Source of the DNA: an uncultured Eubacterium sp.
GTDB lineage: Bacteria > Bacillota > Clostridia > Peptostreptococcales > Anaerovoracaceae
NCBI GenBank assembly: GCA_946555345.1
Contig: CAMNSS010000003.1
Span: 8,080-72,079, forward strand
Direction of reading: 5' to 3'
Length of the DNA: 64,000 bases
A program made the translations under genes and the position numbers. Below are positions 49,797-61,291 of this stretch, in pieces (positions within the stretch are counted from its first letter, which is position 1; the number at the start of each line of letters is the position of its first letter). Under the pieces are notes generated by a model that did not search any database, was not told where the DNA came from, and saw only the letters and a list, made by a program, of their open reading frames with translations.

Positions 49797-50015
49797 GCCT
49801 GGCGGCGAGTTTCAGTGAACGCTTCCGCCCGGCAGCGCCGCATCAATCAGTGCGTTCATTATAACGAGCAGGCCCGGCGCCGAGTTTCAGTGAACGCTTC
49901 CGCCTGGCAACGCCGCATCAATCAGTGCGTTCATTATAACGAGCAGGCCTGGCGGCGAGTTTCAGTGAACGCTCCCGCCCGGCAACGCCGTACCAATCAG
50001 TGCGTTCATTATAAC
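49797..50015. repeat. 75-bp tandem repeat, about 3 copies
   Basis: GAGTTTCAGTGAACGC recurs at 49807, 49882 and 49957; each unit contains the inverted repeat TGAACGC...GCGTTCA. Confidence 0.9.
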
Positions 50016-50354
50016 ATACAAATTTTGCTTTTTCCATCATCTTGAACCTTTTCAATTCCAGCACCATGAGCAAAACTTCCAGCCAAATTGAAAAAGAGAT
50101 ATTTACTTTTGCAAATAAATATCTCCCTTTTCAATTAGTTTAGCATTTCATAAATCTCTTATTTGCCAGCCAGCTGCTGCTCAGCCATTTCGACTAACTT
50201 CTTAGTCATATAACCGCCAACGTAACCGTTCTGTCTAGCAGGTTAGAGAGTATCCCGTCCCTGTGGACAGCAAGCTGTAAATACTTGCGGTCAAATGATA
50301 CATATCCTTATAGCCAAACAGCATCATCAGCGCCTTTTCAAAAGCATATGGCAT

Positions 50355-50916: not shown

Positions 50917-51108
50917 TCATTCGATATCATCGTACAGTTCATATGGATCAAGGCCCAGCGCCTTAGCGATGATGAGGCCGTTTTTTAAGTTCGGCTCCCT
51001 GCGCCCGCTCCGATATCCCTCTATCGTCCTGACGCTGATCCCCGTCATCTCTTCCAACTGCTTTGACGAAACCTTCTTTTCCTTCATAATTTCCGACAAC
51101 TTCATCAT
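50917..51108 (-). CDS. Xre HTH protein, cassette 1
   Basis: LEEMTGISVRTIEGYRSGRREP; ATG overlaps the upstream peptide stop (ATGA). Confidence 0.85.
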   Translation of the reverse strand: MMKLSEIMKEKKVSSKQLEEMTGISVRTIEGYRSGRREPNLKNGLIIAKALGLDPYELYDDIE

Positions 51109-51200
51109 TTCTTGCTCCTTTTCAATGCCGTAACCGCAACAGCTAAAGCCGCAATGCTGATGCACAGGCTCACGATTCGCATGATCATATCTATTTGCAT
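51105..51200 (-). CDS. 31-aa hydrophobic peptide B, cassette 1
   Basis: MQIDMIMRIVSLCISIAALAVAVTALKRSKK*; TM plus basic tail; no clear RBS. Confidence 0.55.
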   Translation of the reverse strand: MQIDMIMRIVSLCISIAALAVAVTALKRSKK

Positions 51201-51223
51201 ATTATAAAGATGGATGATATAAT
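51195..51223 (+). promoter_or_regulatory. Antisense promoter, cassette 1
   Basis: TTGCAT-N17-TATAAT with extended TG. Confidence 0.6.
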
Positions 51224-51254
51224 AAACATATGCCCCATAAGGGGCGGGGAAGTT

Positions 51255-51362
51255 TTATTTCTTCCCCTTCTTATCTCTGGTAACTATGGTTAATGTTATA
51301 ATCGAAGCGGTCAAACTAACGATTGATGTAACCATGTCTATCAGAGATTTTATTATATCCAT
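51255..51362 (-). CDS. 35-aa hydrophobic peptide A, cassette 1 (type I toxin-like)
   Basis: MDIIKSLIDMVTSIVSLTASIITLTIVTRDKKGKK*; RBS AAAGGAGGTG; TTGACA-N17-TATAAT at 51418-51390. Confidence 0.7.
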   Translation of the reverse strand: MDIIKSLIDMVTSIVSLTASIITLTIVTRDKKGKK

Positions 51363-51675
51363 CTTTCCCCACCTCCTTTCTATATTTCTATTATACGTCG
51401 TTCGGCGTGATTTGTCAAGTGCAAAATTGCTTTTTTTATCATTTTTTCCATTATTTTATATATGGAGAAACGCCCCATGCGCCAGCACAATCATGAAGGA
51501 AAACACAAATGCCATTTTAAACAACACCCTCAATGAAAGGGAATGCAATCGGAGGCGTGCGGCATTGCCATAAACGGACGGCTTTCACAAATCTGCACCC
51601 CAAACAAAACAACGGCGGAACACAAACCGAAATGAACCGCCCCTTTGCTTACAAGTTTACCGCATACCGCATCAC

Positions 51676-52131
51676 TTAGCCTTCACCCAAGCCAGCATCA
51701 AATGAAAGGTACGTTGTCAAAATTGCGATCATCTCCGTATTGGATGGCCTTTCAGCCAACGAACGCTTTGCCATCTCGCAAAGAAAACCGGGATTTCGTT
51801 CCCAGGAAATCCTGCAAATCGTACGGATGTTCCGCTCCACGCATTCAGGGCTTGTGTGATACCTTCTGGCTATGTCAGGGTAAAGCCATTTGGTTACAAG
51901 GAGCAATCGGTCAGGCTCTTGGATGCAAAGCGAAACAGCACAAGCCATATAATTAAACCCTGCATAATTAATCGTAATCCCCAGCCTGAATAAGATGAGC
52001 GACATTCTTTGAAAGGCTTCATGATCCACCTGTCCGCCATCGCCTCCATTTTCACAACCCCCAGAAAGGGCAGCGCCCGCAATTTCTTGCACATTTTCCA
52101 TTTCTTTCGACAATAAATTACTTTTTTCCAT
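51676..52131 (-). CDS. Stand-alone Spo0A C-terminal (DNA-binding) domain protein
   Basis: GFNYM, LLLVTKWLYPDIARRYHTSPECVERNIRT, PSNTEMIAIL; no receiver domain. Confidence 0.8.
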   Translation of the reverse strand: MEKSNLLSKEMENVQEIAGAALSGGCENGGDGGQVDHEAFQRMSLILFRLGITINYAGFNYMACAVSLCIQEPDRLLLVTKWLYPDIARRYHTSPECVERNIRTICRISWERNPGFLCEMAKRSLAERPSNTEMIAILTTYLSFDAGLGEG

Positions 52132-52221: not shown

Positions 52222-52533
52222 TCATAACATTTCCTTGTTTTTCATAAAAAAATCCTGCCGATGATTATCAAAGAAACACCCGACGCTCCCCGCCCGGCGC
52301 TTTCCACGCATAAAAAACATTGCCCCGTCCTCCAACGGGCTTGCTGCGGGCGCAGGCTTTCCATCCTCCAGTTCATCGAGAACCCAGCCAGACGCGGCAT
52401 CCATGCCCATGAGGATAGCTTCTGCCAGCGTGCCGCCTCCACTGACACAACCGGGAAGGTCCGGAACCTCAACAGCATAAGCTCCCTGCTTTTCTTCATC
52501 AGGGTAAAAACAAGCGGGATACGTTAATTTCAT
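52222..52533 (-). pseudogene. hicB: HicB antitoxin, C-terminally truncated
   Basis: MKLTYPACFYP...VPDLPGCVSGG-TLAEA...LEDGKPAPAASPLE, then unrelated sequence in place of the RHH domain. Confidence 0.75.
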
Positions 52534-52570
52534 AGACGAAACTTCCTTTATGATATTGCAGCGCCGGGTT

Positions 52571-52748
52571 TTACAGCCCGGCCTGCTTGAAAATTTGTTT
52601 GACGATTTGCAGGGCAATGTCTCCGGGATGCTTAGGAATTGTGGCCTTGCCCGCCTTTGATGGGTGTGTGTACTGACAATGCGAACCCTTTGCTTTCTTG
52701 TACCGCCATCCATCCGCTAAAATATTTTTTTATTTCCCAAAATCCCAT
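52571..52748 (-). pseudogene. hicA: HicA toxin, frameshifted in an A-run near the 5' end
   Basis: MGFWEIKK / ILADGWRYKKAKGSHCQYTHPSKAGKATIPKHPGDIALQIVKQIFKQAGL*; RBS AAGGAGG. Confidence 0.8.
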
Positions 52749-52977
52749 GCTGCGACCTCCTTGCAAATCACATTATGCGCATAATACGCATAATCATCAA
52801 GCAATTTTTTGCATTTTATTAAAGAATTATAAAATAAAATGCTTCCCCGTTGTTGCTTGGCGAGGCGCTTCCCTTGCCCAAAATCCAGCCTGTTTATCAC
52901 GCCCCAAAAGAGGTCATTATTAACCTTTGCATCCCTTTCAATATCCATATAAGCAACGCATTGCATGAAAGATATCA

Positions 52978-53056: not shown

Positions 53057-53191
53057 CTATTCAGCAGGCTTTTCTTTTTCGAGAAGTTCTGCTACTTTCG
53101 CTTTTGCTTCCGCTAAATCTTCACACCCATCCAGGATCATAGCTACCATTTTCAGTATTTTGCCAAGCTGCTTGTCCGTCATGTTTTCCAT
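53057..53191 (-). CDS. 44-aa helical small protein, cassette 2
   Basis: MENMTDKQLGKILKMVAMILDGCEDLAEAKAKVAELLEKEKPAE*; RBS AAAGGAG. Confidence 0.7.
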   Translation of the reverse strand: MENMTDKQLGKILKMVAMILDGCEDLAEAKAKVAELLEKEKPAE

Positions 53192-53281
53192 TGTTTTCTC
53201 CTTTCTCTGCTTGCCCAGCAATTAAGTTAATGCCTTAACTTAATTGTATTATACTAATATTGGTATAACTTCAAATATTTT

Positions 53282-53509
53282 TTAAAAATATTTCAATTTT
53301 TCTTCATCCGTTATGACCATCTCTATAATGTCCCCCGGCTGCTTTCTGCACATGATGCAAATTTTATTAAGCGTATCCAACGTTATGCTTTTCCCGGCCT
53401 TTATATTTGTCATTGTCTGGCGCGGCAATAAATTCTCCTTTTGTATCCGCGTCTGGTTAAACCCGTGCTTTTTCATCTCTTCAAAAACATCTATTTTGTA
53501 CCGTATCAC
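53282..53509 (-). CDS. Cro/C1-type HTH protein
   Basis: GTG start after GGAGGG; TMTNIKAGKSITLDTLNKICIMCRKQPGDIIE. Confidence 0.82.
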   Translation of the reverse strand: MIRYKIDVFEEMKKHGFNQTRIQKENLLPRQTMTNIKAGKSITLDTLNKICIMCRKQPGDIIEMVITDEEKLKYF

Positions 53510-53905
53510 TGCCTTTCCCTCCTTACTTTGCAATCGTAACATTCCGGCATACAAACGCCAATGGGTTTTATCCTAAAATTAGTATGATTCTATCAAAACC
53601 GCATTATCTTGGCACATAAGGAGAAATCGTTATTCCCCGTCGCGCCGCAACAGCAATTAGGGGGATGCCGCCTACGATCAGAAGCCAGCCTGCCCGCCAT
53701 CTCCCCAATGGCGATTCCGTGCCAGTTGCAAACCAATCCGGAATTATATTCTTATTGGAAGCCCTGCATCCAGATGTCGACAGGCCTTATGCTGCAGCCA
53801 GCAAACATCGATTGAAACCATTCGCCATAAACGAAAAACACATCAAAAAATAAATTGCGTTTTTATCTTTTCGCCAAACTTTTTTAAAATACGCTGCAAT
53901 ACGCA

Positions 53906-53934
53906 TTGACATATTGTGCAATATGTAGTATAAT
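53906..53934 (+). promoter_or_regulatory. Consensus sigmaA promoter with palindromic operator, cassette 3
   Basis: TTGACA-N17-TATAAT; CATATTG-TG-CAATATG overlaps the spacer. Confidence 0.8.
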
Positions 53935-53997
53935 AAAGATAGTTAAGCGAGATCCATAAGCTTAATGAATACCGGGCAAGCGAGAAAGAAGAACAGC

Positions 53998-54138
53998 ATG
54001 GAAGACATGGACAAAAAGGAAATAAAAGAAGTCATTGAATGGTGTGATGAAAAAGGGCATAGCGAACATGAAATTTTGGATTTAATCAGAAGAATCGTGG
54101 ATGCAAAGCCTAGAAAAGAAGAAAAGCCTAACGAATAG
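53998..54138 (+). CDS. 46-aa small protein, cassette 3
   Basis: MEDMDKKEIKEVIEWCDEKGHSEHEILDLIRRIVDAKPRKEEKPNE*. Confidence 0.68.
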   Translation: MEDMDKKEIKEVIEWCDEKGHSEHEILDLIRRIVDAKPRKEEKPNE

Positions 54139-54216
54139 GCTTCCGGAAAACAGAAAGGGCGGCGGACTTGCCAAAGCCGCCCAGACTGTAAAATATATTG
54201 TATATCATTTGGCAAG
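54124..54216 (+). ncRNA. Candidate structured RNA element (two hairpins plus possible pseudoknot)
   Basis: AAGCCTA/TAGGCTT stem over the stop; GGGCGGC/GCCGCCC stem 54157-82; loop CTTGCCAAA complementary to TTTGGCAAG 54208-16. Confidence 0.5.
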
Positions 54217-54236
54217 AAAAAGGAAGAGGGAAACGG

Positions 54237-54437
54237 ATGCAAAAAGAAAAAAAAGAATTTGACCAGATCAAATACCAAAACAAATTCATCAAAGAAAAGT
54301 ACGACCGCATCAATTTAACCGTACCCAAAGGCGAAAAAGCGGCGATCAAAGAGAAAGCGGAAGCAGCCGGGGAAAGCGTAAACGAATATATAAACCAGGC
54401 CATAAAGAAAAGAATGGAAAGCGGGGAAAATGCTTGA
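54237..54437 (+). CDS. Ribbon-helix-helix (Arc/CopG-like) protein, cassette 3
   Basis: YDRINLTVPKGEKAAIKEKAEAAGESVNEYINQAI. Confidence 0.82.
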   Translation: MQKEKKEFDQIKYQNKFIKEKYDRINLTVPKGEKAAIKEKAEAAGESVNEYINQAIKKRMESGENA

Positions 54438-54845
54438 AAAATGCATTGTTGAAATCCGTTTTATGAAAGCCATGCCGTTTTGCCGCATAAAAAACCGCCG
54501 CCCCTCGATGCCCATCGCATGAGGGGCGGCATTTCACTGCGAGCATCTGTTGCTCCATGCACCCCAGCCTGCAAGAACGGGGCTTTCGCCCGTTTCCAAA
54601 CCATCAAAGCGGGCCTTGCCCGATTTCAGAATTTTCTCTCGTCTGCCAAATAAGCTTGCGTAATTTCCTTTTTTCATGCAGCAAAAGCTTCCCCGGCGTC
54701 TTCTATTTCTTCCACCTCCTGACGATTACTGCGATCAACACGATATCTGCAATAATAATGCCAATGTCCGCTACCATTCCTATGACCTTCATTTTCTTCT
54801 TTCTCTCCTTGTGACGGTCCATGTTGGCAACGAGCCGTGAAAAAG
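54334..54845. repeat. ~0.5-kb direct repeat, copy 1 (copy 2 at 56166-56650)
   Basis: Shared RHH 3' end, GC-rich terminator hairpin, peptide B gene and GAGCCGTGAAAAAG end. Confidence 0.85.
54703..54792 (-). CDS. 29-aa hydrophobic peptide B
   Basis: MKVIGMVADIGIIIADIVLIAVIVRRWKK*. Confidence 0.68.
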   Translation of the reverse strand: MKVIGMVADIGIIIADIVLIAVIVRRWKK

Positions 54846-54853
54846 CGATCTTT

Positions 54854-55057
54854 TTATTCTTCTTGTTCTGCTGCTTCCATTTTATCTTTTACCGCCGAAT
54901 ATACAAACTCATTCACGCTTTGCCCTGCCGCCGCTGCCCTTTCTTTTATAATTGCCTTTTCCCCCTTTGGCACAAGCAATTCCATGCGGTCATAAGTTCT
55001 TTTCTTGTATTCGTTCTGATACTTCACTTGGTCGAACTCTTTTTTTATTTTTGGCAT
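54854..55057 (-). CDS. Ribbon-helix-helix protein, cassette 4
   Basis: YDRMELLVPKGEKAIIKERAAAAGQSVNEFVYSAV; paralog of 54237..54437. Confidence 0.82.
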   Translation of the reverse strand: MPKIKKEFDQVKYQNEYKKRTYDRMELLVPKGEKAIIKERAAAAGQSVNEFVYSAVKDKMEAAEQEE

Positions 55058-55076
55058 TTATGCCCTCTTCCTTTCC

Positions 55077-55179
55077 CTTGCCAAATCGTGTATAATCTAT
55101 TTTACAGATATGGGCGGCTTTGGCAAGTCCGCCGCCCTTTCTGTTTCTTGGAAGCCTTACTATTTATTGAGTAAGGCTT
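55077..55179 (-). ncRNA. Candidate structured RNA element, second copy
   Basis: 10-bp stem over the stop (55152-79), GGGCGGC stem 55112-37 with identical loop, complement at 55077-85. Confidence 0.5.
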
Positions 55180-55300
55180 TTACTTTTTCCTTTGCTTCTG
55201 CAAGGTCTTTACTCTCATTTAAGATTTCAAGAATTTTTCTCGTCTGATTTTCCTCTGCCGTTTCTTTAAGGATTTCACCTACATTCATTTCTTCGTCCAT
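55160..55300 (-). CDS. 46-aa helical small protein, cassette 4
   Basis: MDEEMNVGEILKETAEENQTRKILEILNESKDLAEAKEKVKALLNK*; shares DLAEAK-KV--LL with 53057..53191. Confidence 0.72.
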   Translation of the reverse strand: MDEEMNVGEILKETAEENQTRKILEILNESKDLAEAKEKVKALLNK

Positions 55301-55364
55301 GTTTTTTTCCTTTCCCTGCCGCCCAGTTATTTGTTAAGTTTATGTATCTCCCTTAACTGTCTTT

Positions 55365-55393
55365 ATTATACAACATATTTCGTACTATGTCAA
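55365..55393 (-). promoter_or_regulatory. Consensus sigmaA promoter with direct-repeat operator, cassette 4
   Basis: TTGACA-N17-TATAAT; CATATTTCGTACTA occurs twice. Confidence 0.8.
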
Positions 55394-55539
55394 TACATAT
55401 TTCGTACTAATTAAAAAAGCATAATTTTTTTATGAGGAGAGGAAGGTATGAATATGCAATATATATTACGTAAATTAGATAATACATATTAGCAATACGT
55501 AATTTATGTAATATAATATGCATTGTAAGGCGGTTGGTT

Positions 55540-55716
55540 ATGAAAGGCAAAGAGCTTGTAAAGCTGTTCAAAAAAGATGGCTGGGAAGCGACCAGAGTAA
55601 GAGGAAGCCATCATGTGATGAAAAAAGGCAATTAGGTTGAAGTAATCCCAGTACATAGCACCGGCATACCAATCGGCCTGGCAAATAAAATACGAAAGCG
55701 GGCAGAGCTTAAATAA
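55540..55716 (+). pseudogene. hicA: HicA toxin with internal amber stop
   Basis: MKGKELVKLFKKDGWEATRVRGSHHVMKKGN*VEVIPVHSTGIPIGLANKIRKRAELK*; TAG at 55633-35. Confidence 0.82.
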
Positions 55717-55751
55717 ACCTAGCATCGCTTTGATTGAAGGGAACGCATATT

Positions 55752-56126
55752 ATGTTAAAAGTATATCCTGCCATATTTCATGAAGAAGACGGTTTCCGGG
55801 TCGAGTTCCCGGACCTTGATGGCTGCAATGCCTGTGGAAACACCCTTGAGGAAACTATGGAGCTTGCGCAAGAGGCGCTTTGCCTTTATCTTGCTACGCT
55901 TGCAGAAGAAGACCTTGAAATTCCTTTCCCATCACCCATAAAAGACATAAAAACCGACGGCTTTGTATCATATGTTTCCACAAACATGGATAAGTACCGC
56001 AGAAATAACAAGGCGGTTAAAAAAACGTTATCCATACCGCAATGGCTCGCCGATGAAGCAGAAAAAAATAATCTTAGCCTGTCCAAGGTTTTACAAGAAG
56101 GATTAAAAACCCGTCTTGGATTATAA
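55752..56126 (+). CDS. hicB: HicB antitoxin, intact
   Basis: YPAIFHEE, VEFPDLDGC, AQEAL, C-terminal KAVKKTLSIPQWL...SLSKVLQEGL. Confidence 0.9.
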   Translation: MLKVYPAIFHEEDGFRVEFPDLDGCNACGNTLEETMELAQEALCLYLATLAEEDLEIPFPSPIKDIKTDGFVSYVSTNMDKYRRNNKAVKKTLSIPQWLADEAEKNNLSLSKVLQEGLKTRLGL

Positions 56127-56165
56127 CGACAAAAGCCCCCATCGCCAGGGCTGGCCGCAAAATAA

Positions 56166-56650
56166 AAAAAGCGGCGGCCAAAGAGAAAGCGGAAGCAGCT
56201 GGGGAAAGCGCAAACGAATATAGAAACCAAGCCATAAAGAGAAAAATGGAGAGCGGGGAAAATGCTTGAAAACCGCACTGACAATCTCCTTTTTGTTGAA
56301 GCCATGCCGTTTTGCCGCATAAAAGAAACCGCCGCCCCTCGATGCCCATCGCATGAGGGGCGGCGGCATTTCACTGCAAGCATCTGTTGCTCCATGCACC
56401 CCAGCCTGCAAGAACAGGGCTTTGCTGATTCCAGGATTTCCGCTCGTCCGCCAAATGAGCTTGCGCGACTTCCTTTTTTCATGAATCAAATGCTTTCCCA
56501 GCGCCTTCTAGTTCTTCCACCTCCTGACGATTACTGCGATCAGCACGATATCTGCGATAATAATGCCAATGTCCGCTACAATTCCTATGATCTCCATTTC
56601 CTTCCTCCTCTCCCTGTGACGATTTATATTGACAACGAGCCGTGAAAAAG
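56166..56650. repeat. ~0.5-kb direct repeat, copy 2 (begins with an RHH 3' fragment)
   Basis: Aligns with 54334-54845. Confidence 0.85.
56508..56597 (-). CDS. 29-aa hydrophobic peptide B, cassette 5
   Basis: MEIIGIVADIGIIIADIVLIAVIVRRWKN*; RBS GAGGAGG. Confidence 0.72.
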   Translation of the reverse strand: MEIIGIVADIGIIIADIVLIAVIVRRWKN

Positions 56651-56657
56651 TTATCAT
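56629..56657 (+). promoter_or_regulatory. Antisense promoter, cassette 5
   Basis: TTGACA-N17-TATCAT directly before hairpin 56665-87. Confidence 0.7.
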
Positions 56658-56690
56658 TCTCTTAGGGCGGGGCTTTCGCCCCTGCCCTCC

Positions 56691-56810
56691 TTACTCAATC
56701 AGCTTATCAATCAGTGTTATGATTGCGCTGATGAGCTGAATTAAAACCGTGACGAGGATGATTTTTTCAACGTTGGTATCCTCTTTGCGGTTTTTCTTTT
56801 TCCTGCCCAT
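56691..56810 (-). CDS. 39-aa peptide A, cassette 5
   Basis: MGRKKKNRKEDTNVEKIILVTVLIQLISAIITLIDKLIE*; RBS AAGGAGG; TTGACA-N17-TATAAT at 56892-56864. Confidence 0.75.
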   Translation of the reverse strand: MGRKKKNRKEDTNVEKIILVTVLIQLISAIITLIDKLIE

Positions 56811-56938
56811 TGTTCCTGCCTCCTTTTTGTGATATATTTAAGTTAATTTCTTAACTTGGTTATATTATATCTTATTTTTATGAGATTGTCAATGTATTTT
56901 TCTTATTTTTATGAGATTTTGAATGGAGGGCAAAACCT

Positions 56939-57154
56939 GTGTTTTGGGAACGTTTTTACAGTATGTGCGTTGCAAAAGGCACAAAGCCAAACCCTGTTGC
57001 CAAAGAAATCGGCATTTCTTCTGGAATTGTAACTAAATGGAAAAATGTTGGGACACTCCCTAATGGTGAAACCTTAATTAAAATCGCCGACTACCTCGGC
57101 TGCTCCGTTGACTACCTCCTCGGCAGGACGGACAAACCAGAAGTAAACCGTTAG
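56939..57154 (+). CDS. Xre HTH repressor, divergent, cassette 5
   Basis: VAKEIGISSGIVTKWK...LIKIADYLGCSVDYLLGRTD; RBS GGAGG. Confidence 0.88.
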   Translation: MFWERFYSMCVAKGTKPNPVAKEIGISSGIVTKWKNVGTLPNGETLIKIADYLGCSVDYLLGRTDKPEVNR

Positions 57155-57230
57155 GTTTCTTTTTGTTTCCTTTCCCTGCCATCAGGATTGCAGGCAATGC
57201 GCCGTTCATTTCCTGCCCCCTTCTTTATAT

Positions 57231-57471
57231 TATACAGTTTCGTCAGTTTTCCCGTTCCGTTTTGGCGGGCTGGTTTCCCTTTGCAAGCAGGCATTCAAGC
57301 CCGCATCCCAGGACGTCCGCTATTTCCTTCCCGGCCTGCAGTGACGGGTTTTTCGTCCCCCCTTTCAACCTGGCAGAGCATCGCCTGGAAGATGCCCGCC
57401 CGTTCAGCAAGGCGCGCCTGCGTCAGCCCCTTTTCTTCCCTGATGCGGCGGATGTTGTCCCCTGCGCCCAT
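57231..57471 (-). pseudogene. Xre HTH gene with +1 frameshift in a G6 tract, cassette 6
   Basis: MGAGDNIRRIREEKGLTQARLAERAGIFQAMLCQVERG / TKNPSLQAGKEIADVLGCGLECLL; tract at 57357-62. Confidence 0.75.
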
Positions 57472-57560
57472 TATCCATTCCACCTTCTTGCGATATAGAC
57501 AATTACTGACAGATAAAAAACCACTTCAATTCCTTTAAAAACCCAATACAAAATATTCAT
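57471..57560 (-). CDS. 29-aa hydrophobic peptide B, cassette 6
   Basis: MNILYWVFKGIEVVFYLSVIVYIARRWNG*; stop overlaps the Xre ATG (TAATG). Confidence 0.68.
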   Translation of the reverse strand: MNILYWVFKGIEVVFYLSVIVYIARRWNG

Positions 57561-57593
57561 GTCCGCCATCCTTCCTTCATTAAAATATTTATA

Positions 57594-57622
57594 TTGACAA
57601 TGCGCCTCGAAAAAGTTATCAT
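57594..57622 (+). promoter_or_regulatory. Antisense promoter, cassette 6
   Basis: TTGACA-N17-TATCAT before hairpin 57630-52. Confidence 0.7.
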
Positions 57623-57652
57623 TTCCGTAGGGAGGGGCTTTCGCCCCATCCC

Positions 57653-57784
57653 TTACTCAATGAGTTCTTTGATGATTTCCATCAGTATCTCAATGAGCTC
57701 AAGTATTGCGATTGCAAGAAGTATGTGTTCTCTGTGTGAACTCTTCTTGCTTTCGCTTTTTTTGCGCTTCTTTTTCCTGCCCAT
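57653..57784 (-). CDS. 43-aa peptide A, cassette 6
   Basis: MGRKKKRKKSESKKSSHREHILLAIAILELIEILMEIIKELIE*; RBS AGGAGG; TTTACA-N17-TATAAT at 57866-57838. Confidence 0.72.
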   Translation of the reverse strand: MGRKKKRKKSESKKSSHREHILLAIAILELIEILMEIIKELIE

Positions 57785-57910
57785 TGCTTTTTGCCTCCTG
57801 TTCTGGTATATTTTAGTTAATTTCTTAACTTGGTTATATTATATCATGCTATTACGTGATTGTAAATACTTTTTTCATGTTTTAGCGTGATTTTTTAGGA
57901 GGGGTGTGTC

Positions 57911-58138
57911 ATGTATGATTTAGAACTAATTGCTTTTCGCATAAAACAAACTTCAAAAGCCAAGAAAATTCCCATGAAAACCCTTCTTTCAGAATGCCAT
58001 CTCGGCATTAACGCCGTATCTGAAATGGCAAAAGGAAAGACCATGTCTTCTATAAATCTCGCCAAAATCGCCGACTACCTCGGCTGCTCCGTTGACTACC
58101 TCCTCGGCAGGACGGACAAACCAGAAATTAATAAATAA
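57911..58138 (+). CDS. Xre HTH repressor, divergent, cassette 6
   Basis: C-terminal KIADYLGCSVDYLLGRTDKPE; RBS AGGAGG. Confidence 0.85.
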   Translation: MYDLELIAFRIKQTSKAKKIPMKTLLSECHLGINAVSEMAKGKTMSSINLAKIADYLGCSVDYLLGRTDKPEINK

Positions 58139-58182
58139 AAAACAAGCCCGCTTTTTCTTTGCCGCCTATCCGTCTCCCCAGC

Positions 58183-58335
58183 CTACCGCCTAACCAAATC
58201 CCTGACGATGCACCCCAGCAACGCCAACGCATTCAACGAAACAGCCACTTTACAAAACACCGTCCATTCAAGCGTTATTGCTATTACCAGATTTACGCCT
58301 AATGCCCCTGCCAGCCAGTTTCTTGCCTTGTTCAT
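58183..58335 (-). CDS. 50-aa two-TM peptide B, cassette 7
   Basis: MNKARNWLAGALGVNLVIAITLEWTVFCKVAVSLNALALLGCIVRDLVRR*; RBS GGGAGGG. Confidence 0.65.
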   Translation of the reverse strand: MNKARNWLAGALGVNLVIAITLEWTVFCKVAVSLNALALLGCIVRDLVRR

Positions 58336-58353
58336 GATAACCCTCCCTATCTA

Positions 58354-58382
58354 TTGACTTATCTATTACGATATGATAGACT
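58354..58382 (+). promoter_or_regulatory. Antisense promoter, cassette 7
   Basis: TTGACT-N17-TAGACT before the GC hairpin near 58389-58415. Confidence 0.5.
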
Positions 58383-58425
58383 TTTTACAAGGACGGGGGC
58401 TTCCGCCCCTGCCCTTGGCTATCCT

Positions 58426-58527
58426 TTAGGACTTAATAGCTGTTATCAAAGCGGCAATGGTGGCAACACTTTGGATAACGATATTTGCTATTTCCTTTTT
58501 GGATAGCTTTTCTTTTTCATCTTTCAT
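58426..58527 (-). CDS. 33-aa peptide A, cassette 7
   Basis: MKDEKEKLSKKEIANIVIQSVATIAALITAIKS*; RBS AAAGGAG; TTGACA-N17-TATAAT at 58589-58561. Confidence 0.7.
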   Translation of the reverse strand: MKDEKEKLSKKEIANIVIQSVATIAALITAIKS

Positions 58528-58677
58528 ATCGTTTTCTCCTTTCCTCTTGTCTGTAATTTTATTATAACTCTACTTTATGTAGATGTCAATACTTTTTGTA
58601 AACTTTTTTTAATTTTTGTATTGATTTTTTCTACTTTATGTAATATACTTTTCTATACAGGGAGGATTTTTCTAATT

Positions 58678-59340
58678 ATGAATGATGATCAATATAAAAG
58701 AATTTTTTCCGAAAACCTAAAGAGATACATGGCGTTAAATAACAAAAACCAAATAGATTTGATTAATGATTTAAAACTCAATAAATCCGCTGTTTCTACA
58801 TGGTGTAATGGAACAAGGCTTCCAAGAATGGATAAGATTGAAATTTTAGCAAAATACTTTAATGTCAATCGCTCTGACCTGATAGAAGAACATGATTTCA
58901 CTAATAATGCCACCGGCGGCCTCAATCCCTGCGGCAATACAGCCCCCCTCCCAGCGGAGAAAATCCCCCTGCTGGCCGGATTAGCCAATGGAGAACTTTT
59001 GTTCTACGGCGAGGACAGGGAAAGCTATGTCCTCGCAGGCACGGGCATTGACGCTGATTTCTGCCTCAAAGCCAGGGGGGACAGCATGATTGGCGCCAGG
59101 ATACTCGACGGGGACATCGTATTTATCAGAAAGACCAGCACGGTGGACAACGGGGAAGTTGCCGCCGTTGCAATGGACGATGAAGTGTCATTAAAACGGG
59201 TTTATTATTTCAAAGACGAAAGCCTGCTGATGCTCCTGTCCGAAAATCCGCAATACCCGCCGGAGTGCTATAAGGGCGGGCAACTGGATCACATACGGAT
59301 TCTCGGCAAGGCCGTTGCCTTCCAGGGCAGTATCATATAA
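58678..59340 (+). CDS. CI/LexA-like repressor (Xre HTH plus S24 peptidase), divergent, cassette 7
   Basis: VSTWCNGTRLPRMDKIE HTH; GDSM (catalytic Ser), DGDIVFI, SLKRV (catalytic Lys), SENP; cleavage-site-like LAG. Confidence 0.92.
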   Translation: MNDDQYKRIFSENLKRYMALNNKNQIDLINDLKLNKSAVSTWCNGTRLPRMDKIEILAKYFNVNRSDLIEEHDFTNNATGGLNPCGNTAPLPAEKIPLLAGLANGELLFYGEDRESYVLAGTGIDADFCLKARGDSMIGARILDGDIVFIRKTSTVDNGEVAAVAMDDEVSLKRVYYFKDESLLMLLSENPQYPPECYKGGQLDHIRILGKAVAFQGSII

Positions 59341-59610: not shown

Positions 59611-59796
59611 TTATTTCTGTAATTCCTGGCAGACACAATCGATTCCTTTCCTGATGATATCGGTTTTTGTCATCCCGGTTTTTTCCATGCAAAATCTTAT
59701 CTTTTGCATATCTTCTTCGGAAAGCCTGAAACTTTCCCGGTAGCTTTTAGGATTGTCAGTAGGCCTGCCCATCCGTTTCTTTTCTATTTTCATCAC
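59611..59796 (-). CDS. RHH/CopG-like small DNA-binding protein, cassette 8
   Basis: MGRPTDNPK..ESFRLSEED...TGMTKTDIIRKGI. Confidence 0.78.
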   Translation of the reverse strand: MMKIEKKRMGRPTDNPKSYRESFRLSEEDMQKIRFCMEKTGMTKTDIIRKGIDCVCQELQK

Positions 59797-59805
59797 CTCT
59801 TGACC

Positions 59806-59869
59806 CTTGCCATGATAAACATATATATGATAATATATATTTAGTAATTGGGCGGTGGCAAGCCCGCCC
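59806..59869 (-). ncRNA. Candidate structured RNA element, third copy
   Basis: GGGCGG/CCGCCC stem with loop GCTTGCCA; complement TGGCAAG at 59812-06 just before the RBS. Confidence 0.45.
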
Positions 59870-59898
59870 TTTACTGTTTTGCTGGGTTATGCCCCTTT

Positions 59899-60054
59899 TT
59901 AGTCTTCCAAAGTGCTTTGAAGGTTGTCCAAAATCTTTTCAAGCCTTTGGTTTTTCTTTTTTTCATCCGTTTCTTCCTTTGCCTCTTTCAGGTCGTCTAT
60001 CAGAAATCGGATGAACCCGTTGAACTGCTTGTCTGTCATTCCCATGCCCTGCAT
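59899..60054 (-). CDS. 51-aa helical small protein, cassette 8
   Basis: MQGMGMTDKQFNGFIRFLIDDLKEAKEETDEKKKNQRLEKILDNLQSTLED*; MTDKQ shared with 53057..53191; TTGACT-N17-TATAAT at 60145-60117. Confidence 0.72.
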   Translation of the reverse strand: MQGMGMTDKQFNGFIRFLIDDLKEAKEETDEKKKNQRLEKILDNLQSTLED

Positions 60055-60158: not shown

Positions 60159-60401
60159 TTATTTATGAAATTCTTCAAGGTCGCTGACCCTATGGTTTAC
60201 GACTTTTATCTTTTCTTTATTAATGCCCACCGCCTGTTCAAGCAGATAAGTGCGCTCCACGAGGTTGTTGTGCTTGTCCACTTTCTTTTCAAGTTGCCCG
60301 ATCCTGTAGCCTGTCAGCCTGCTCGACGCAATCACGCCGAACAGGGAGCCTAAAAGACCCCCCGCCGCCGCAATGGCGGCAACGATGATTTCCGTGTCCA
60401 T
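60159..60401 (-). CDS. Phage lysis-module membrane protein (TM plus coiled coil, XhlA-like)
   Basis: N-terminal TM, LEKKVDKHNNLVERTY coiled region; follows the endolysin. Confidence 0.6.
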   Translation of the reverse strand: MDTEIIVAAIAAAGGLLGSLFGVIASSRLTGYRIGQLEKKVDKHNNLVERTYLLEQAVGINKEKIKVVNHRVSDLEEFHK

Positions 60402-60412
60402 AGCTCCCCCTC

Positions 60413-61291
60413 CTACAGCCTGCTGTTGATGTAGCGCTGCCATGCCCTGACGGTTTTTGCTCCCATGTATCCGTCAATCTGCCCGCACGGGAAGCCTTTG
60501 CCCTGCAAAAGCCCCTGCATGGCCGTGACAGTCTGCTTTCCTGCCTTGCCGTCCGGCGCTGCCCCTGCCAGCCCCTGGATTGCCCGCACCATTGGCGAAC
60601 CGTTACCTGTTTTCCCGAAAGACCACGAAGACACAAGGCAGTTTGGCAAATACTGCTTACAGCTTATGAGCTGCCCTGACACGATGCCGTCAGCAGGCGT
60701 CCCCATCACCGCCTGGGTCTTCCTTGTGGTGTCCTTCCCCCACTTGCCATCCTCATCCAGCTTCCCCGGCAGCCTGCCTGATGGGGCTTCGCCTGTGTCT
60801 GCCGCGCCGCCCATCGCAGCGGTCACCATATTTAAAAACCTCTGCCATCCGTAAGCCATCGTCCTGTGCGGGCAGTCCTTGCCGCTCCAGTCCTTGTGCC
60901 GCCTTACCCGGTCAATGCCCCAGCCGTAAGATTTTAGCAATGAGGCGATGTACGCCGCCGCATTCTGCTCTGCCGCATCAAACCTTGCGCCCCCGGACCT
61001 CGAGTAGCAGATTTCTATCCCAATCGACTTGCGGTTTCCCGTGCCGTTCCCGCCGTCCCCGGCATGGAACGCATTTCGGTCAAACGGGAGGCAACGCACG
61101 ACTTCCTTGTCATCCACTGCCACGTGGTAAGATGTCGAAGAACTGTTGTTCCTCATGTAATTCGCCTCGTTCCTTGCGCTTGCGTCGTTTGCCGTGTTAT
61201 GCACCGTGACGTACTGCGGCGTCATTTTGTACGGGCTTTTCTTCCCGTACTTGCCGGACGGTACCGGCAGGTCAATTATCGTGTATGGCAT
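60413..61291 (-). CDS. Endolysin, N-acetylmuramoyl-L-alanine amidase (Amidase_2, XlyA-like) with PG-binding repeats
   Basis: TVHNTANDASARNE, HAGDG, SIGIEICYS, HKDWSGKDCPH; DG-x2-G-x2-T repeats. Confidence 0.92.
   Translation of the reverse strand: MPYTIIDLPVPSGKYGKKSPYKMTPQYVTVHNTANDASARNEANYMRNNSSSTSYHVAVDDKEVVRCLPFDRNAFHAGDGGNGTGNRKSIGIEICYSRSGGARFDAAEQNAAAYIASLLKSYGWGIDRVRRHKDWSGKDCPHRTMAYGWQRFLNMVTAAMGGAADTGEAPSGRLPGKLDEDGKWGKDTTRKTQAVMGTPADGIVSGQLISCKQYLPNCLVSSWSFGKTGNGSPMVRAIQGLAGAAPDGKAGKQTVTAMQGLLQGKGFPCGQIDGYMGAKTVRAWQRYINSRL

Follow-up and report, generated by a model that had tools for sequence, protein, structure and literature searches.

Small-peptide cassettes with convergent antisense promoters beside clostridial prophage lysis genes: a candidate repressor- and RNA-controlled switch

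Layout of the cassettes

The window analysed here is a stretch of 64,000 nucleotides from an uncultured Eubacterium sp. It carries an array, situated between phage lysis genes and chromosomal genes and among HicAB pairs, in which the initial annotation had placed four cassettes (51105-51418, 56508-56892, 57471-57866 and 58183-58589). All four are real and are present in the sequence as described; they are called here the 51-kb cassette and cassettes 5, 6 and 7. The first peptide of each has a GGAGG-type ribosome-binding site, and the repressor genes divergent from the cassettes are of the HTH or S24 type. The region contains 37 promoter-like sites, compared with 19.6 ± 3.9 in shuffles. Cassette 5 consists of the following parts:

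56331..56365, minus strand: intrinsic terminator of the A5-B5 transcript, a hairpin followed by a minus-strand T-run, as read from the sequence
56508..56597, minus strand: peptide B5, 29 aa, MEIIGIVADIGIIIADIVLIAVIVRRWKN, with a strong ribosome-binding site GGAGAGGAGG
56629..56657, plus strand: antisense promoter TTGACA-17-TATCAT (11/12)
56664..56803, plus strand: predicted antisense RNA of about 135-140 nt (5′ hairpin, A-ORF complement, terminator stem, T-run)
56665..56687: GC hairpin GGGCGGGGC-TTTC-GCCCCTGCCC, loop GAAA on the A-sense strand
56691..56810, minus strand: peptide A5, 39 aa, MGRKKKNRKEDTNVEKIILVTVLIQLISAIITLIDKLIE, GGAGG ribosome-binding site, member of the A family
56838..56857, minus strand: 5′ leader hairpin TTAAGTTAA-TTTC-TTAACTT at the predicted 5′ end of the A mRNA (repeat family D8)
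56864..56892, minus strand: sense promoter P(A5), TTGACA-17-TATAAT (12/12 match)
56871..56918: two CTTATTTTTATGAGATT copies read from the sequence as a putative Xre operator, one inside the P(A5) promoter spacer (56871-56887), the other upstream of the P(A5) -35 (56902-56918)
56939..57154, plus strand: divergent Xre repressor, 71 aa, GTG start (Pfam HTH_3 2.2e-8, HTH_26, Phage_CI_repr)

The GC hairpin of cassette 5 is common to the 3′ region of the A mRNA and the 5′ end of the antisense RNA. The antisense terminator stem (about 56741-56795; dG -18.5, z = -2.26) ends at +132 of the predicted RNA, 15 nt before the AUG of A. Related loci also have a 10-12/12 promoter at the position of P(A5). The stem of the leader hairpin recurs in cassettes with other repressors (L039, L059, L061), and because it is paired with differing repressors it is likelier to be an RNA 5′ stabiliser than a specific operator. 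The A5-B5 terminator region is a repeat (D14) shared with a copy at 54.5 kb. The parts of cassette 6 are:

57243..57471, minus strand: Cro-like HTH gene relic, co-directional, with a frameshift at a six-G run (plus-strand C run 57357-57362)
57471..57569, minus strand: peptide B6, 32 aa (29 aa from the second ATG), ending RRWNG
57594..57622, plus strand: antisense promoter TTGACA-17-TATCAT (11/12)
57629..57766, plus strand: predicted antisense RNA (terminator dG -20.4, stem end +129, z = -4.64)
57630..57652: GC hairpin, GAAA loop on the sense strand
57653..57784, minus strand: peptide A6, 43 aa, MGRKKKRKKSESKKSSHREHILLAIAILELIEILMEIIKELIE, matched by the A profile (E = 1.7e-9 in its own genome)
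57838..57866, minus strand: sense promoter TTTACA-17-TATAAT (11/12, extended TG)
57911..58138, plus strand: divergent Xre repressor, 75 aa (HTH_26 8.6e-5)

The Cro-like relic, which matches HTH_3/HTH_31 on 57295-57483, continues in another frame (ORF 57243-57410); L039 and L059 have an intact homologue after B. Between cassettes 5 and 6 the promoter-hairpin block (D6) is 85% identical, the A peptides just 38%. The remaining cassettes and a fifth copy of B are composed as follows:

50917..51418, minus strand: 51-kb cassette, whole, including the Cro-like gene
50917-51108, minus strand: Cro-like HTH gene, overlapping the 31-aa ORF
51105-51200, minus strand: second ORF, 31 aa, without a Shine-Dalgarno sequence
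51194-51223, plus strand: internal promoter TTTGCA-18-TATAAT (10/12)
51232-51267: hairpins, with the GC hairpin at 51232-51245
51255-51362, minus strand: first peptide, 35 aa
51390-51418, minus strand: sense promoter TTGACA-17-TATAAT (12/12)
54703..54792, minus strand: B-only relic MKVIGMVADIGIIIADIVLIAVIVRRWKK, the fifth copy, behind an RHH gene and with a decayed antisense promoter
58183..58589, minus strand: cassette 7, whole
58183-58335, minus strand: second ORF, a 50-aa protein
58354-58382, plus strand: antisense promoter TTGACT-17-TAGACT (9/12 only)
58389-58417: hairpin, sense-strand loop GGAA
58426-58527, minus strand: first peptide, 33 aa
58561-58589, minus strand: sense promoter TTGACA-17-TATAAT (12/12)
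58678..59340, plus strand: divergent CI/LexA-type repressor, HTH plus Peptidase_S24 (Pfam Peptidase_S24 3.6e-20, HTH_26)

The initial annotation had treated the four as one class. The layout is indeed common, but only cassettes 5 and 6 are homologues, of one another as well as of a wider family; the 51-kb cassette and cassette 7 resemble them in layout alone and are analogues. The hairpins described as GGGC-GAAA-GCCC type in cassettes 5-7 have the GAAA loop in 5 and 6 but GGAA in 7. The 51194-51223 site, here scored with an 18-nt spacer, was earlier given in another register as TTGCAT-17-TATAAT. In the 51-kb cassette a plus-strand terminator at 51246-51267 would limit the predicted antisense RNA to merely about 45 nt; the predicted antisense terminator of cassette 7 is not significant (z = -0.20). 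Searches for relatives of the 33-aa peptide of cassette 7 and of the 35-aa peptide of the 51-kb cassette found none, and the absence of comparative support for these two cassettes is counted against the switch proposed below. The 50-aa protein of cassette 7 has homologues, e.g. L012 3704-3886.

Peptide A and the convergent antisense unit

Cassettes 5 and 6 are members of a widespread, unnamed family of prophage modules of gut Clostridia. The peptide A profile matched 335 clusters (50% identity), nearly all of 37-42 aa, and was matched in 13 of 399 sampled Clostridia genomes. The module order (promoter with operators, 5′ leader hairpin, peptide A, GC hairpin and, at the end, an antisense TTGACA-17-TATnnT promoter) is kept in 20 of 21 related loci; since these lie in other genomes, the layout is beyond chance.

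Comparison of the homologues indicates that peptide A is translated and conserved under purifying selection: the median dN/dS is 0.35 (0.14-0.36 for the closest pairs), and the variability of codon positions 1, 2 and 3 is 0.32, 0.20 and 0.48, respectively. The last 23 residues have a mean hydrophobicity of 0.52, a hydrophobic moment of 0.43 and about 3.4 charges. Of the basic stretch plus one transmembrane helix proposed initially, the Lys-rich N-terminal part stands, but the remainder is an amphipathic rather than a plain transmembrane helix; the first peptide of the 51-kb cassette has the opposite polarity, with a hydrophobic N-terminus and a KKGKK tail.

Of 21 family loci, which come from unrelated genomes, 20 keep the antisense promoter, its -10 hexamer ending 24-38 nt after the stop codon of A. 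In 17 aligned promoters TTGACA is invariant and the spacer always measures 17 nt but varies in sequence; the hexamers are invariant across loci whose synonymous sites are saturated. The same pattern precedes ordinary genes in other Clostridia, which identifies it as a working promoter type. Wherever a related locus has the antisense promoter, a hairpin occupies the GC-hairpin position.

The predicted antisense RNA ends at a strong hairpin and T-run, 11-27 nt short of the AUG of A. In 13 members of the main subfamily this terminator hairpin (dG -18 to -33) has its end between +119 and +141, ahead of the T-run; z-scores are -2.3 to -5.6 in 10 of the 11 members folded. The stem covaries: 78.6% of cells are paired compared with 68.3% in shuffles (39-59% in slid controls), and 35 cells are compensatory, a number reached in 0 of 500 shuffles, for which the value is 14.9. 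Positions paired by G·U only number 32 on the antisense strand and 5 on the sense strand. A5 in the window differs from A5 of the related viral contig L011 by one synonymous change (GAT to GAC), which leaves this position paired, as U·G, in the antisense RNA alone. The inverted repeat within the A ORF also folds significantly on the sense strand, so part of the conservation could serve the mRNA, a point against the switch proposed below. The antisense transcript is expected to be a discrete RNA about 125-145 nt long, and the convergent unit aimed at A is, on this comparative evidence, a conserved and selected part of the module.

Promoter conservation, terminator covariation and antisense-specific wobble pairs support the convergent antisense unit against A that had been suggested at the outset. 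Beyond the hairpin and the 3′ part of A, over which the initial proposal had it run, the RNA would cover nearly the whole ORF. The suggestion that it might extend further into the divergent Xre gene, as in an excludon, was not supported: with a strong terminator before the AUG of A, routine read-through is unlikely.

Peptide B, the Cro-like gene and the repressors

B-type ORFs are found in 17 of the 21 loci examined (15/19 counting family loci alone) and are missing in four that keep A, the hairpin and the antisense promoter; B is an optional part. The B peptides are 26-32 aa long and hydrophobic with basic tails, and their sequences are far more variable than those of A. The A-B gap is 54-100 nt and most B ORFs carry a ribosome-binding site of their own, so that no coupling of their translation to A is evident; as no canonical terminator was found between A and B, co-transcription is probable. 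In 10 of the 17 B-bearing loci the stop of B and the start of the next ORF, mostly an HTH gene, overlap or are directly adjacent (offsets -1 to -11).

The RRW-x-x endings of B, noted earlier for three B peptides, are the codon image of AGGAGGTGG, which in relatives reads as the ribosome-binding site of a co-directional Cro-like HTH gene overlapping the stop of B. RRW-x-x was rejected as a toxin motif on this ground. In B6 the AGAAGGTGG codons likewise double as ribosome-binding site for the next ORF. The B-only relic (repeat D1) is 84% identical to 56417-56663.

Relatives adjoin Abi genes or occupy int/repressor/cro/xis regions; their gene order runs from a repressor (S24, ImmR plus ImmA, or Xre) through A, B and a Cro-like HTH gene to an excisionase-like gene. 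Each related cassette has its own repeat or palindrome pair at the two corresponding sites, inside the promoter spacer and next to it, which fits the dedicated repressor of the initial proposal, the repeats being its putative binding sites. L011 is a natural recombinant lacking Xre5 and the A6/B6 unit; its A5/B5 peptides stand behind the leader, operator region and repressor gene of cassette 6, so that the remaining peptide unit still faces a repressor gene.

A candidate two-level switch and its alternatives

No homology of any cassette part to a known type I toxin, antitoxin RNA or defence protein was found, and no cassette peptide matched any known toxin family; the lack of homology counts against the switch set out here. 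By their organization, cassettes 5 and 6 resemble a toxin-antitoxin-type switch of an undescribed kind, a 39-residue membrane-active peptide being jointly restrained by a repressor and a conserved antisense small RNA. As AGGAGGTGG serves a Cro-like gene in relatives, each cassette is best explained as a cut-down CI/Cro-type immunity switch and not as a free-standing TA locus. The type I TA analogy itself remains reasonable, given the conserved antisense unit and the fit of the repressor to cassette-specific repeats, and a type I TA-like function is likely.

With moderate confidence, the cassettes are read as prophage switches of this cut-down type with peptide A restrained at two levels. The divergent repressor, a small Xre protein or, in cassette 7, a self-cleaving CI/LexA-type protein, would bind the cassette-specific operators; as these lie in and beside the spacer of a near-consensus promoter, binding would block transcription. 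The promoter just past the stop of A would fire the opposite way, giving an RNA with the GC hairpin first, then the complement of nearly the whole A ORF, and its own terminator. Pairing with leaky A mRNA would block initiation, create an RNase III substrate, or both, which would also eliminate peptide B, made from the same transcript, and the Cro-like gene of those cassettes that have one. Peptide A, with its Lys-rich head and amphipathic helix, is most likely membrane-active and growth-arresting, of the TisB kind. Its release would follow loss or cleavage of the repressor, once transcription exceeds what the antisense RNA can restrain. In this role the cassette would be an addiction or abortive-infection module, which would account for the accumulation of such units next to HicAB pairs at the end of the prophage.

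Among the closest known systems is tisB/istR-1 of Escherichia coli, an SOS-controlled type I TA pair. IstR-1 pairs with the 5′ UTR of tisB and is not known to be a full-length cis-antisense RNA. In the cassettes, by contrast, the RNA would span the ORF, the repressor is encoded by the cassette itself and A has a Lys-rich N-terminal extension; family libraries detected no sequence similarity. Common to both are a small amphipathic membrane peptide whose charged residues line one face and double control by repressor and small RNA, cassette 7 having an S24 self-cleaving repressor. The tisB gene is repressed by LexA and blocked by IstR-1 (PMC13159721): a LexA-type repressor acts on transcription, and a constitutive small RNA additionally blocks translation (PMC13159721, PMC11449926).

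It is possible, though rather unlikely, that A is a harmless early-operon peptide biasing the lysis-lysogeny decision. Lambda CIII biases the phage decision with its amphipathic helix, and lambda OOP is antisense to the 3′ end of cII. The antisense RNA would then be an OOP-like brake on leaky early transcription, and the array cassettes orphan or decoy immunity regions kept for their repressors, as immunity against heteroimmune phages. The gene order of the relatives and the overlap of B with the following HTH gene agree with this. A divergent repressor, operators in a strong early promoter and a small downstream Cro-like gene are shared with the CI/Cro immunity regions of temperate phages; OOP, a short RNA directed against an early gene, suppresses CII activities (PMC5869508). 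The cassettes differ in placing a 39-aa amphipathic peptide and a tiny hydrophobic ORF between early promoter and cro, and those of the window are orphans stacked behind lysis genes without early genes to control: cassettes 5 and 7 have A, B, both promoters and the terminator intact with no Cro-like or early genes after them, and the Cro-like gene of cassette 6 is frameshifted. A consensus promoter, repressor, full-length antisense RNA and structured mRNA would also be heavy control for a mild regulator. In relatives A is often the first gene of an apparently true early operon, and counted against the two-level switch is that a lysis-lysogeny regulator is there equally possible.

Less probable is a reciprocal switch, in line with the initial excludon suggestion, as on pCF10 of Enterococcus faecalis, in which a convergent promoter within the prgQ operon produces the roughly 100-nt Anti-Q RNA and RNase III acts on the duplex (PMC3181467). 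The antisense promoter would be the main Xre promoter and the terminator a partial stop yielding an Anti-Q-like RNA, read-through transcripts would run past the sense promoter and encode Xre, and convergence would produce bistability. The topology is that of prgX / PQ - prgQ - PX, with an upstream divergent repressor gene and a small peptide encoded first in the operon (PMC3181467). In each of cassettes 5-7 the repressor gene shares its strand with the antisense RNA and is 275-290 nt downstream of the RNA start, and the repressor genes' own promoters are weak or sub-threshold. On the other side, strong terminators with long T-runs precede the sense promoter, giving the antisense RNA its own end, and no attenuator downstream of the antisense overlap was found in the cassettes. 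The 51-kb cassette and L012 keep the antisense promoter although their HTH gene follows B on the sense strand and no antisense-strand repressor gene follows beyond the sense promoter. PrgX is large and peptide-sensing and prgQ encodes a secreted signal, whereas the cassette repressors are 71-75-aa HTH or CI-type proteins without a ligand domain; lacking a peptide-binding domain, the Xre proteins cannot have A as an iCF10-like ligand.

That B is the toxin and A a mok-like upstream ORF, with the antisense RNA controlling B indirectly through a bicistronic mRNA, is improbable. B has a hydrophobic N-terminal helix and basic tail, and is probably co-transcribed with A. [quoted passage not shown] These clostridial prophage systems have neither an Xre/operator layer nor a second peptide or Cro-like gene, and no homology to the cassettes. 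It is B, not A, that has the C. difficile toxin shape, yet the antisense RNA does not overlap B; this too is counted against the two-level switch. Against a toxic B stand its absence from A-bearing loci, its variability, the lack of evident coupling, and the next gene's overlapping ribosome-binding site, which explains part of its conservation. In yonT-yoyJ/SR6 of the Bacillus subtilis prophage SPbeta, likewise prophage-borne, two small toxin ORFs share one transcript with a 100-nt convergent antisense RNA between them, and SR6 promotes yonT mRNA degradation by RNase III (PMC5848175). [quoted passage not shown]

Decaying remnants, with chance ORFs, promoter-like AT-rich motifs and no present function, are very improbable: the array does contain broken genes (a HicA with an in-frame stop, the frameshifted Cro-like gene, the B-only relic), but this reading fits the data for cassettes 5 and 6 poorly in view of the selection on A, the invariant promoter hexamers across loci with saturated synonymous sites, the covarying terminator stem and the 335 protein clusters.

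Cassette array and family of peptide A

The cassette array extends from 50.3 to 60.1 kb and contains densely spaced small cassettes, HicAB pairs and HTH genes. It has chromosomal genes on one side and phage lysis genes on the other:

GNAT, purine-nucleoside phosphorylase and YlmH genes, chromosomal side
60159-60443, XhlA-like ORF, lysis side
60413-61291, Amidase_2 endolysin, lysis side

Inspection of ORFs and hairpins and a promoter scan of the window revealed all four cassettes of the initial annotation: the 51-kb cassette (51105-51418) and cassettes 5 (56508-56892), 6 (57471-57866) and 7 (58183-58589). The plus-strand promoter proposed between the first (A) and the second small peptide (B) was also found in each of them, with scores of 9/12 to 11/12.

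Promoters of the four cassettes (promoter scan)
58589, 56892 and 51418, minus strand, sense promoters TTGACA-17-TATAAT, 12/12
57866, minus strand, sense promoter of cassette 6, 11/12
56629 and 57594, plus strand, internal promoters TTGACA-17-TATCAT, 11/12
51194, plus strand, internal promoter of the 51-kb cassette, 10/12
58354, plus strand, internal promoter of cassette 7, 9/12

Downstream of each sense promoter the first ORF, which encodes a peptide and is preceded by a good ribosome-binding site, is followed by a GC hairpin, whose loop on the peptide strand is GAAA or GGAA in cassettes 5-7, and by another small ORF with a hydrophobic product. Cassettes 5 and 6 are 85% identical over the block that comprises internal promoter and hairpin; the alignment identity of the A5 and A6 peptides is just 38%. 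Relatives were detected neither for the first peptide of cassette 7 nor for that of the 51-kb cassette. Folding of the predicted antisense terminator was not significant in cassette 7, and the predicted antisense RNA of the 51-kb cassette is only about 45 nt long. These two cassettes have the same layout but do not belong to the same family.

DNA similarity searches yielded zero matches in the INPHARED phage collection and only chance-level matches in 200 genomes of the same family; a word-indexed protein search with A6 returned nothing. Because DNA similarity gave little, relatives were sought by other routes, using the promoter-hairpin pattern, the CI-like repressor and a profile of peptide A. 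The promoter-hairpin pattern led to L011, a near-identical viral contig in IMG/VR, and a looser promoter pattern led to three further loci (L030, L034 and L036). The repressor search led to L012, a locus of the same layout in an unrelated Clostridia MAG. The profile, built from six A peptides and run against 1.84 billion cluster representatives, matched 335 proteins at E<=0.001, nearly all of 37-42 aa, with a consensus resembling MSRKKKNGKQD..KTIILITAILNLIKALIELINKLIE. None of the sources holding these 335 proteins gives a name for them. In a sample of 399 Clostridia genomes 13 matched the profile, all from different genera and representing about ten families. Such sporadic spread is the pattern of mobile-element cargo.

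None of the peptides of the window had a meaningful match in Pfam, NCBIfam, PHROGs or PADLOC, and Rfam gave no match either at the gathering threshold or at E<=1. Comparison with known type I toxin and antitoxin families (Fst/Ldr, TxpA/BsrG, Hok, TisB, Rfam antitoxin RNAs) produced no sequence or covariance-model match, and literature searches found no description of the peptide A family. According to a 2019 review, C. difficile is almost the only known source of type I-like modules in Clostridia, and homology searches gave few type I toxins in Clostridia outside this species (PMC6563280). Phages of gut Clostridia carry hundreds of members of the peptide A family, nameless in Pfam, NCBIfam and PHROGs, and the predicted antisense RNA of the family is without an Rfam match.

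Peptide A and its predicted antisense RNA

To define the anatomy of the unit 21 distinct family loci were examined, and 20 of them had one common order of elements. This order begins with the sense promoter (10-12/12), 48-103 nt ahead of A, and continues with a 5′ leader hairpin, the A ORF and a GC hairpin immediately 3′ of the A stop codon. The opposite strand carries a TTGACA-17-TATnnT promoter, whose -10 hexamer ends 24-38 nt from the A stop; the predicted antisense transcript therefore begins at the base of the hairpin. The stability of the post-stop hairpin favours the sense strand only slightly (13 vs 6 loci), too little to assign it to one strand, and in about half of the loci its loop is of the GNRA or UNCG type. 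A role of this hairpin as terminator of the A mRNA was ruled out, as the sense strand has no T-run behind it.

When 17 antisense promoters were aligned on the -35 hexamer, TTGACA, TAT..T and the 17-nt spacing were found to be kept, whereas the spacer sequence was variable, which is the signature expected of a promoter under selection. The same pattern directly precedes a dnaX-like gene in L029, a locus from another genome, and other ordinary Clostridia genes, and thus represents a working promoter type in these bacteria. A version with a conserved spacer, TTGACA-NN-GNGCC-N4-AAAAG-N-TATNAT, occurs upstream of ordinary genes of unrelated Clostridia (L029, L031, L032, L035 and L037). It had nine matches in the genome collection, where about one would be expected by chance as estimated from the collection size; this suggests a common strong-promoter design.

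Pairwise dN/dS values for peptide A had a median of 0.35 (0.14-0.36 for the closest pairs), and variability at codon positions 1, 2 and 3 was 0.32, 0.20 and 0.48. By these measures A is very probably translated, a real and conserved protein. It is 37-43 aa long and has a Lys-rich head, with a mean of 5.9 K/R within the first 15 residues. The C-terminal 23 residues have a mean hydrophobicity of 0.52, a hydrophobic moment of 0.43 and about 3.4 charged residues on one face. Because of this moment and the one-sided charges A is better described as an amphipathic, lytic-peptide-like helix than as a plain transmembrane segment. From their sequences both A and B are predicted to be small (<60 aa) hydrophobic or amphipathic proteins of membrane type, as the type I toxin-antitoxin (TA) assignment of the initial annotation presupposed. 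[quoted passage not shown]

In 13 members of the main subfamily the antisense strand has a hairpin of -18 to -33 kcal/mol, with its end at +119 to +141 and a T-run behind it. Between the end of the stem and the position of the A AUG 11-27 nt remain, thus the predicted antisense RNA is about 125-145 nt long and covers almost the entire A ORF. Of 11 members tested, 10 had a significant folding energy (z = -2.3 to -5.6). The T-run is complementary to the Lys codons at the N-terminus of A, one stem arm consists of the codons for the polar residues 7-11 (e.g. N-Q-D), and the other of the codons for the start of the helix (I-L-I-T). In the stem Gln CAG, Lys AAG or Glu GAG pairs with the synonymous Leu codons CTG, CTT or CTC. 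The N-terminal codons of A thus appear to serve also as terminator of the RNA antisense to A itself, a clear overlap of protein and RNA constraints in which the terminator is written in the codons of the controlled peptide; this cautions against a purely protein reading of the conserved N-terminal motif.

RNAalifold on MAFFT alignments gave no usable consensus for either hairpin, and a first automatic mapping of the stem to the codon alignment yielded zero consensus pairs. Because RNAalifold failed to provide a consensus, a 14-bp terminator stem was specified by hand and counted in an alignment of 16 sequences, with 500 shuffles and slid registers as controls. Paired cells amounted to 78.6% in the stem, compared with 68.3% in the shuffles (0/500 as high) and 39-59% in the slid registers. 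Cells with compensatory change on both sides numbered 35, against 14.9 in the shuffles (0/500 as high) and 4-20 in the slid registers, and the covariation score was 0.43 (shuffles 0.26, slid registers 0.12-0.23).

Folding of this inverted repeat is significant on the sense strand too. With the stem register anchored on the 3′ arm, however, positions that pair through G·U alone were found 32 times on the antisense strand and 5 times on the sense strand. Base composition was ruled out as the cause of this asymmetry: the 5′ arm is purine-rich and the 3′ arm pyrimidine-rich, so both A·C and G·T mismatches were available, yet the split was 32:5, which points to selection on the antisense transcript. 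In line with this, the single difference between the window and L011 inside A5 is a synonymous GAT to GAC change, which would leave a U·G pair in the antisense RNA and a C·A in the mRNA. To judge from these patterns the family loci contain a selected transcription unit antisense to the peptide mRNA, a predicted antisense RNA gene of the kind found in type I TA systems.

Repressors, peptide B and possible function

Divergent genes of the HTH_3/HTH_26/Phage_CI_repr or Peptidase_S24 type lie beside the strong promoter and its repeats, consistent with the dedicated repressor claimed earlier. This arrangement, a divergent HTH repressor and a strong promoter with repeated putative operator sites, is that of a CI/Cro switch. 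Five extra loci were fetched via members of the A family. The repressor just across from A is of the Peptidase_S24 type in L061, an ImmR with ImmA adjoining an integrase in L063, and of the Xre type in L057, L059 and L062. A is followed by B and a Cro-like HTH gene, and in L057 also by an excisionase-like gene. In L039, another fetched locus, two cassettes are located between holin/amidase genes and a tRNA-fragment att site. With a repressor across from A and B and a Cro-like gene after it, the unit is therefore a CI/Cro-type switch, in which peptide A and the antisense RNA are inserted between the early promoter and cro.

Every cassette has its own repeat or palindrome pair, of which one copy lies within the promoter spacer and the other precedes the -35 hexamer. 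For cassette 5 these are:

56871-56887 and 56902-56918, repeat pair of cassette 5

L039, L057, L059 and L062 have other sequences at the same two places. The cassette-specific repeats are natural operator candidates. The TTAAG...CTTAA palindrome of the leader was ruled out as a specific operator: its stem is common to cassettes with different repressors, and for this reason it is better read as a 5′ mRNA stabiliser.

Comparison of L011 (6200-8200) with the window (55400-58140) revealed a natural recombinant, which lacks Xre5, the small HTH repressor gene divergent from cassette 5, together with the A6/B6 unit. A5/B5 is placed behind the leader and operator region of cassette 6 and its divergent repressor gene Xre6. 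HicB is missing too. The loss is consistent with recombination between the repeated leader regions (56794-56920 and 57768-57894 in the window). In L011 every remaining peptide unit faces a repressor gene, as addiction logic would require.

In L039 a 38-aa hydrophobic ORF (2694-2810) overlaps the stop of a divergent 82-aa gene (2807-3055), which is Xre-like by its C-terminal ...IADYLDCSVDYLLGRTD motif and has no Pfam match. Here, too, a small membrane peptide is linked with a gene that resembles a repressor.

A B-type ORF (26-32 aa, hydrophobic, with a basic tail) was present in 17 of 21 cassettes, a list that included cassette 7 and the 51-kb cassette and omitted L052 and L063; counting family loci alone, in 15 of 19. 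In ten of the 17 B-bearing cassettes the start of the following ORF, most often a 60-70-aa HTH gene, adjoins or overlaps the B stop (offsets -1 to -11). A reading of the RRW ending of B as a toxin motif was rejected: in L059, L061 and L039 its codons, AGG AGG TGG, are a perfect Shine-Dalgarno sequence of the following HTH gene. Relatives and the 51-kb cassette have a small HTH gene of the Cro-like type after the regulated promoter; B5 and a B-only copy (54703-54792) have lost the gene behind them, and cassette 7 lacks it. No early genes follow the four cassettes of the window. The remaining copies are:

57243-57471, Cro-like gene behind B6, frameshifted relic
50917-51108, Cro-like gene behind the second ORF of the 51-kb cassette, intact

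The frameshift behind B6 is due to a run of six C at 57357-57362 (six G on the coding strand), and the gene is intact in relatives. The site could be a true pseudogene mutation or a homopolymer sequencing error.

The comparison supports, at the level of sequence, a selected antisense unit (promoter, 5′ hairpin and terminator), a translated amphipathic peptide and a divergent HTH repressor gene with specific promoter repeats. In the mechanism that we propose the repressor would turn off the consensus promoter. The antisense RNA would pair with leaky mRNA, reaching the ribosome footprint just 3′ of the AUG, and the duplex would be a substrate of RNase III. Pairing would silence A and, via mRNA decay, B and the Cro-like gene. 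Upon loss or cleavage of the repressor A would accumulate and harm the membrane; the repressor of cassette 7 is of the self-cleaving S24 type. In tisB/istR-1 LexA is combined with a small RNA (PMC13159721), and the cassettes would join that logic with a phage immunity region.

As a tentative and in its complete form rather unlikely reading, the cassettes would be undescribed, widespread three-layer modules of gut Clostridia prophages, in which a CI/Cro-like repressor pair, a full-length cis-antisense RNA and a TisB-like amphipathic peptide form a self-contained addiction or abortive-infection trap. Repressors stacked in arrays behind the lysis genes, each with a different operator specificity, would provide immunity to heteroimmune phages, and any invader able to displace a repressor or cleave it would set off the peptide that this repressor controls.

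Alternatively, peptide A might be a harmless modulator of the lysis-lysogeny decision, with an OOP-like RNA. A second rival reading regards B rather than A as the toxin: the polarity of B matches that of the C. difficile toxins, but the antisense RNA leaves B unoverlapped. The excludon idea of the initial annotation is equivalent to a reciprocal switch of the pCF10 type, with an antisense promoter that drives the repressor gene as well (PMC3181467). Its likelihood is reduced by the strong antisense terminator, by the 51-kb cassette and L012, where no repressor gene lies on the antisense-RNA strand beyond the sense promoter, and by the repressors, which are HTH-only proteins of 71-75 aa or combine HTH with an S24 peptidase, unlike the peptide-binding RRNPP-type regulator of prgQ/prgX.

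The module links antisense-RNA control with CI/Cro-type immunity switches. If the type I-like reading is right, RNA-antitoxin control reaches many prophages of gut commensals. The module also indicates what many of the 'orphan' Xre genes at prophage ends may guard.

Other elements of the array

Two HicA/HicB pairs were found in the array, at 55534-56126 and 52222-52750. In the HicA at 55534 an in-frame TAG follows codon 33, and an intact HicB_lk_antitox gene comes next; the HicA of the other pair looks frameshifted. Among the prophage cassettes a 151-aa ORF on the minus strand (51676-52131) matches the DNA-binding Pfam domain Spo0A_C (8e-28) and has no receiver domain. A tandem repeat (49815-50045) lies exactly where the chromosomal genes meet the array; in translation it contains the motif NASA.QRRINQCVHYNEQA..RVSV three times, and it may be linked to an attachment site. 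No tRNA genes were found in the window and no tyrosine integrase on its contig.

Neighbouring 'class II' cassettes (53057-55393 and 59611-60054) consist of a small helical ORF and an RHH/NikA-like gene, and have the same consensus promoter and TTAAG...CTTAA leader stem. The B-only relic at 54703-54792 is joined to the 3′ end of one of them. The second protein of cassette 7 (58183-58335; 50 aa, MNKARNWL...RDLVRR) is conserved and homologues were found. A 60-aa relative in L012 (3704-3886) lies on the opposite strand, directly upstream of a CI-like repressor gene, which indicates that the cassette-7 protein is not bound to the A-hairpin-B layout.
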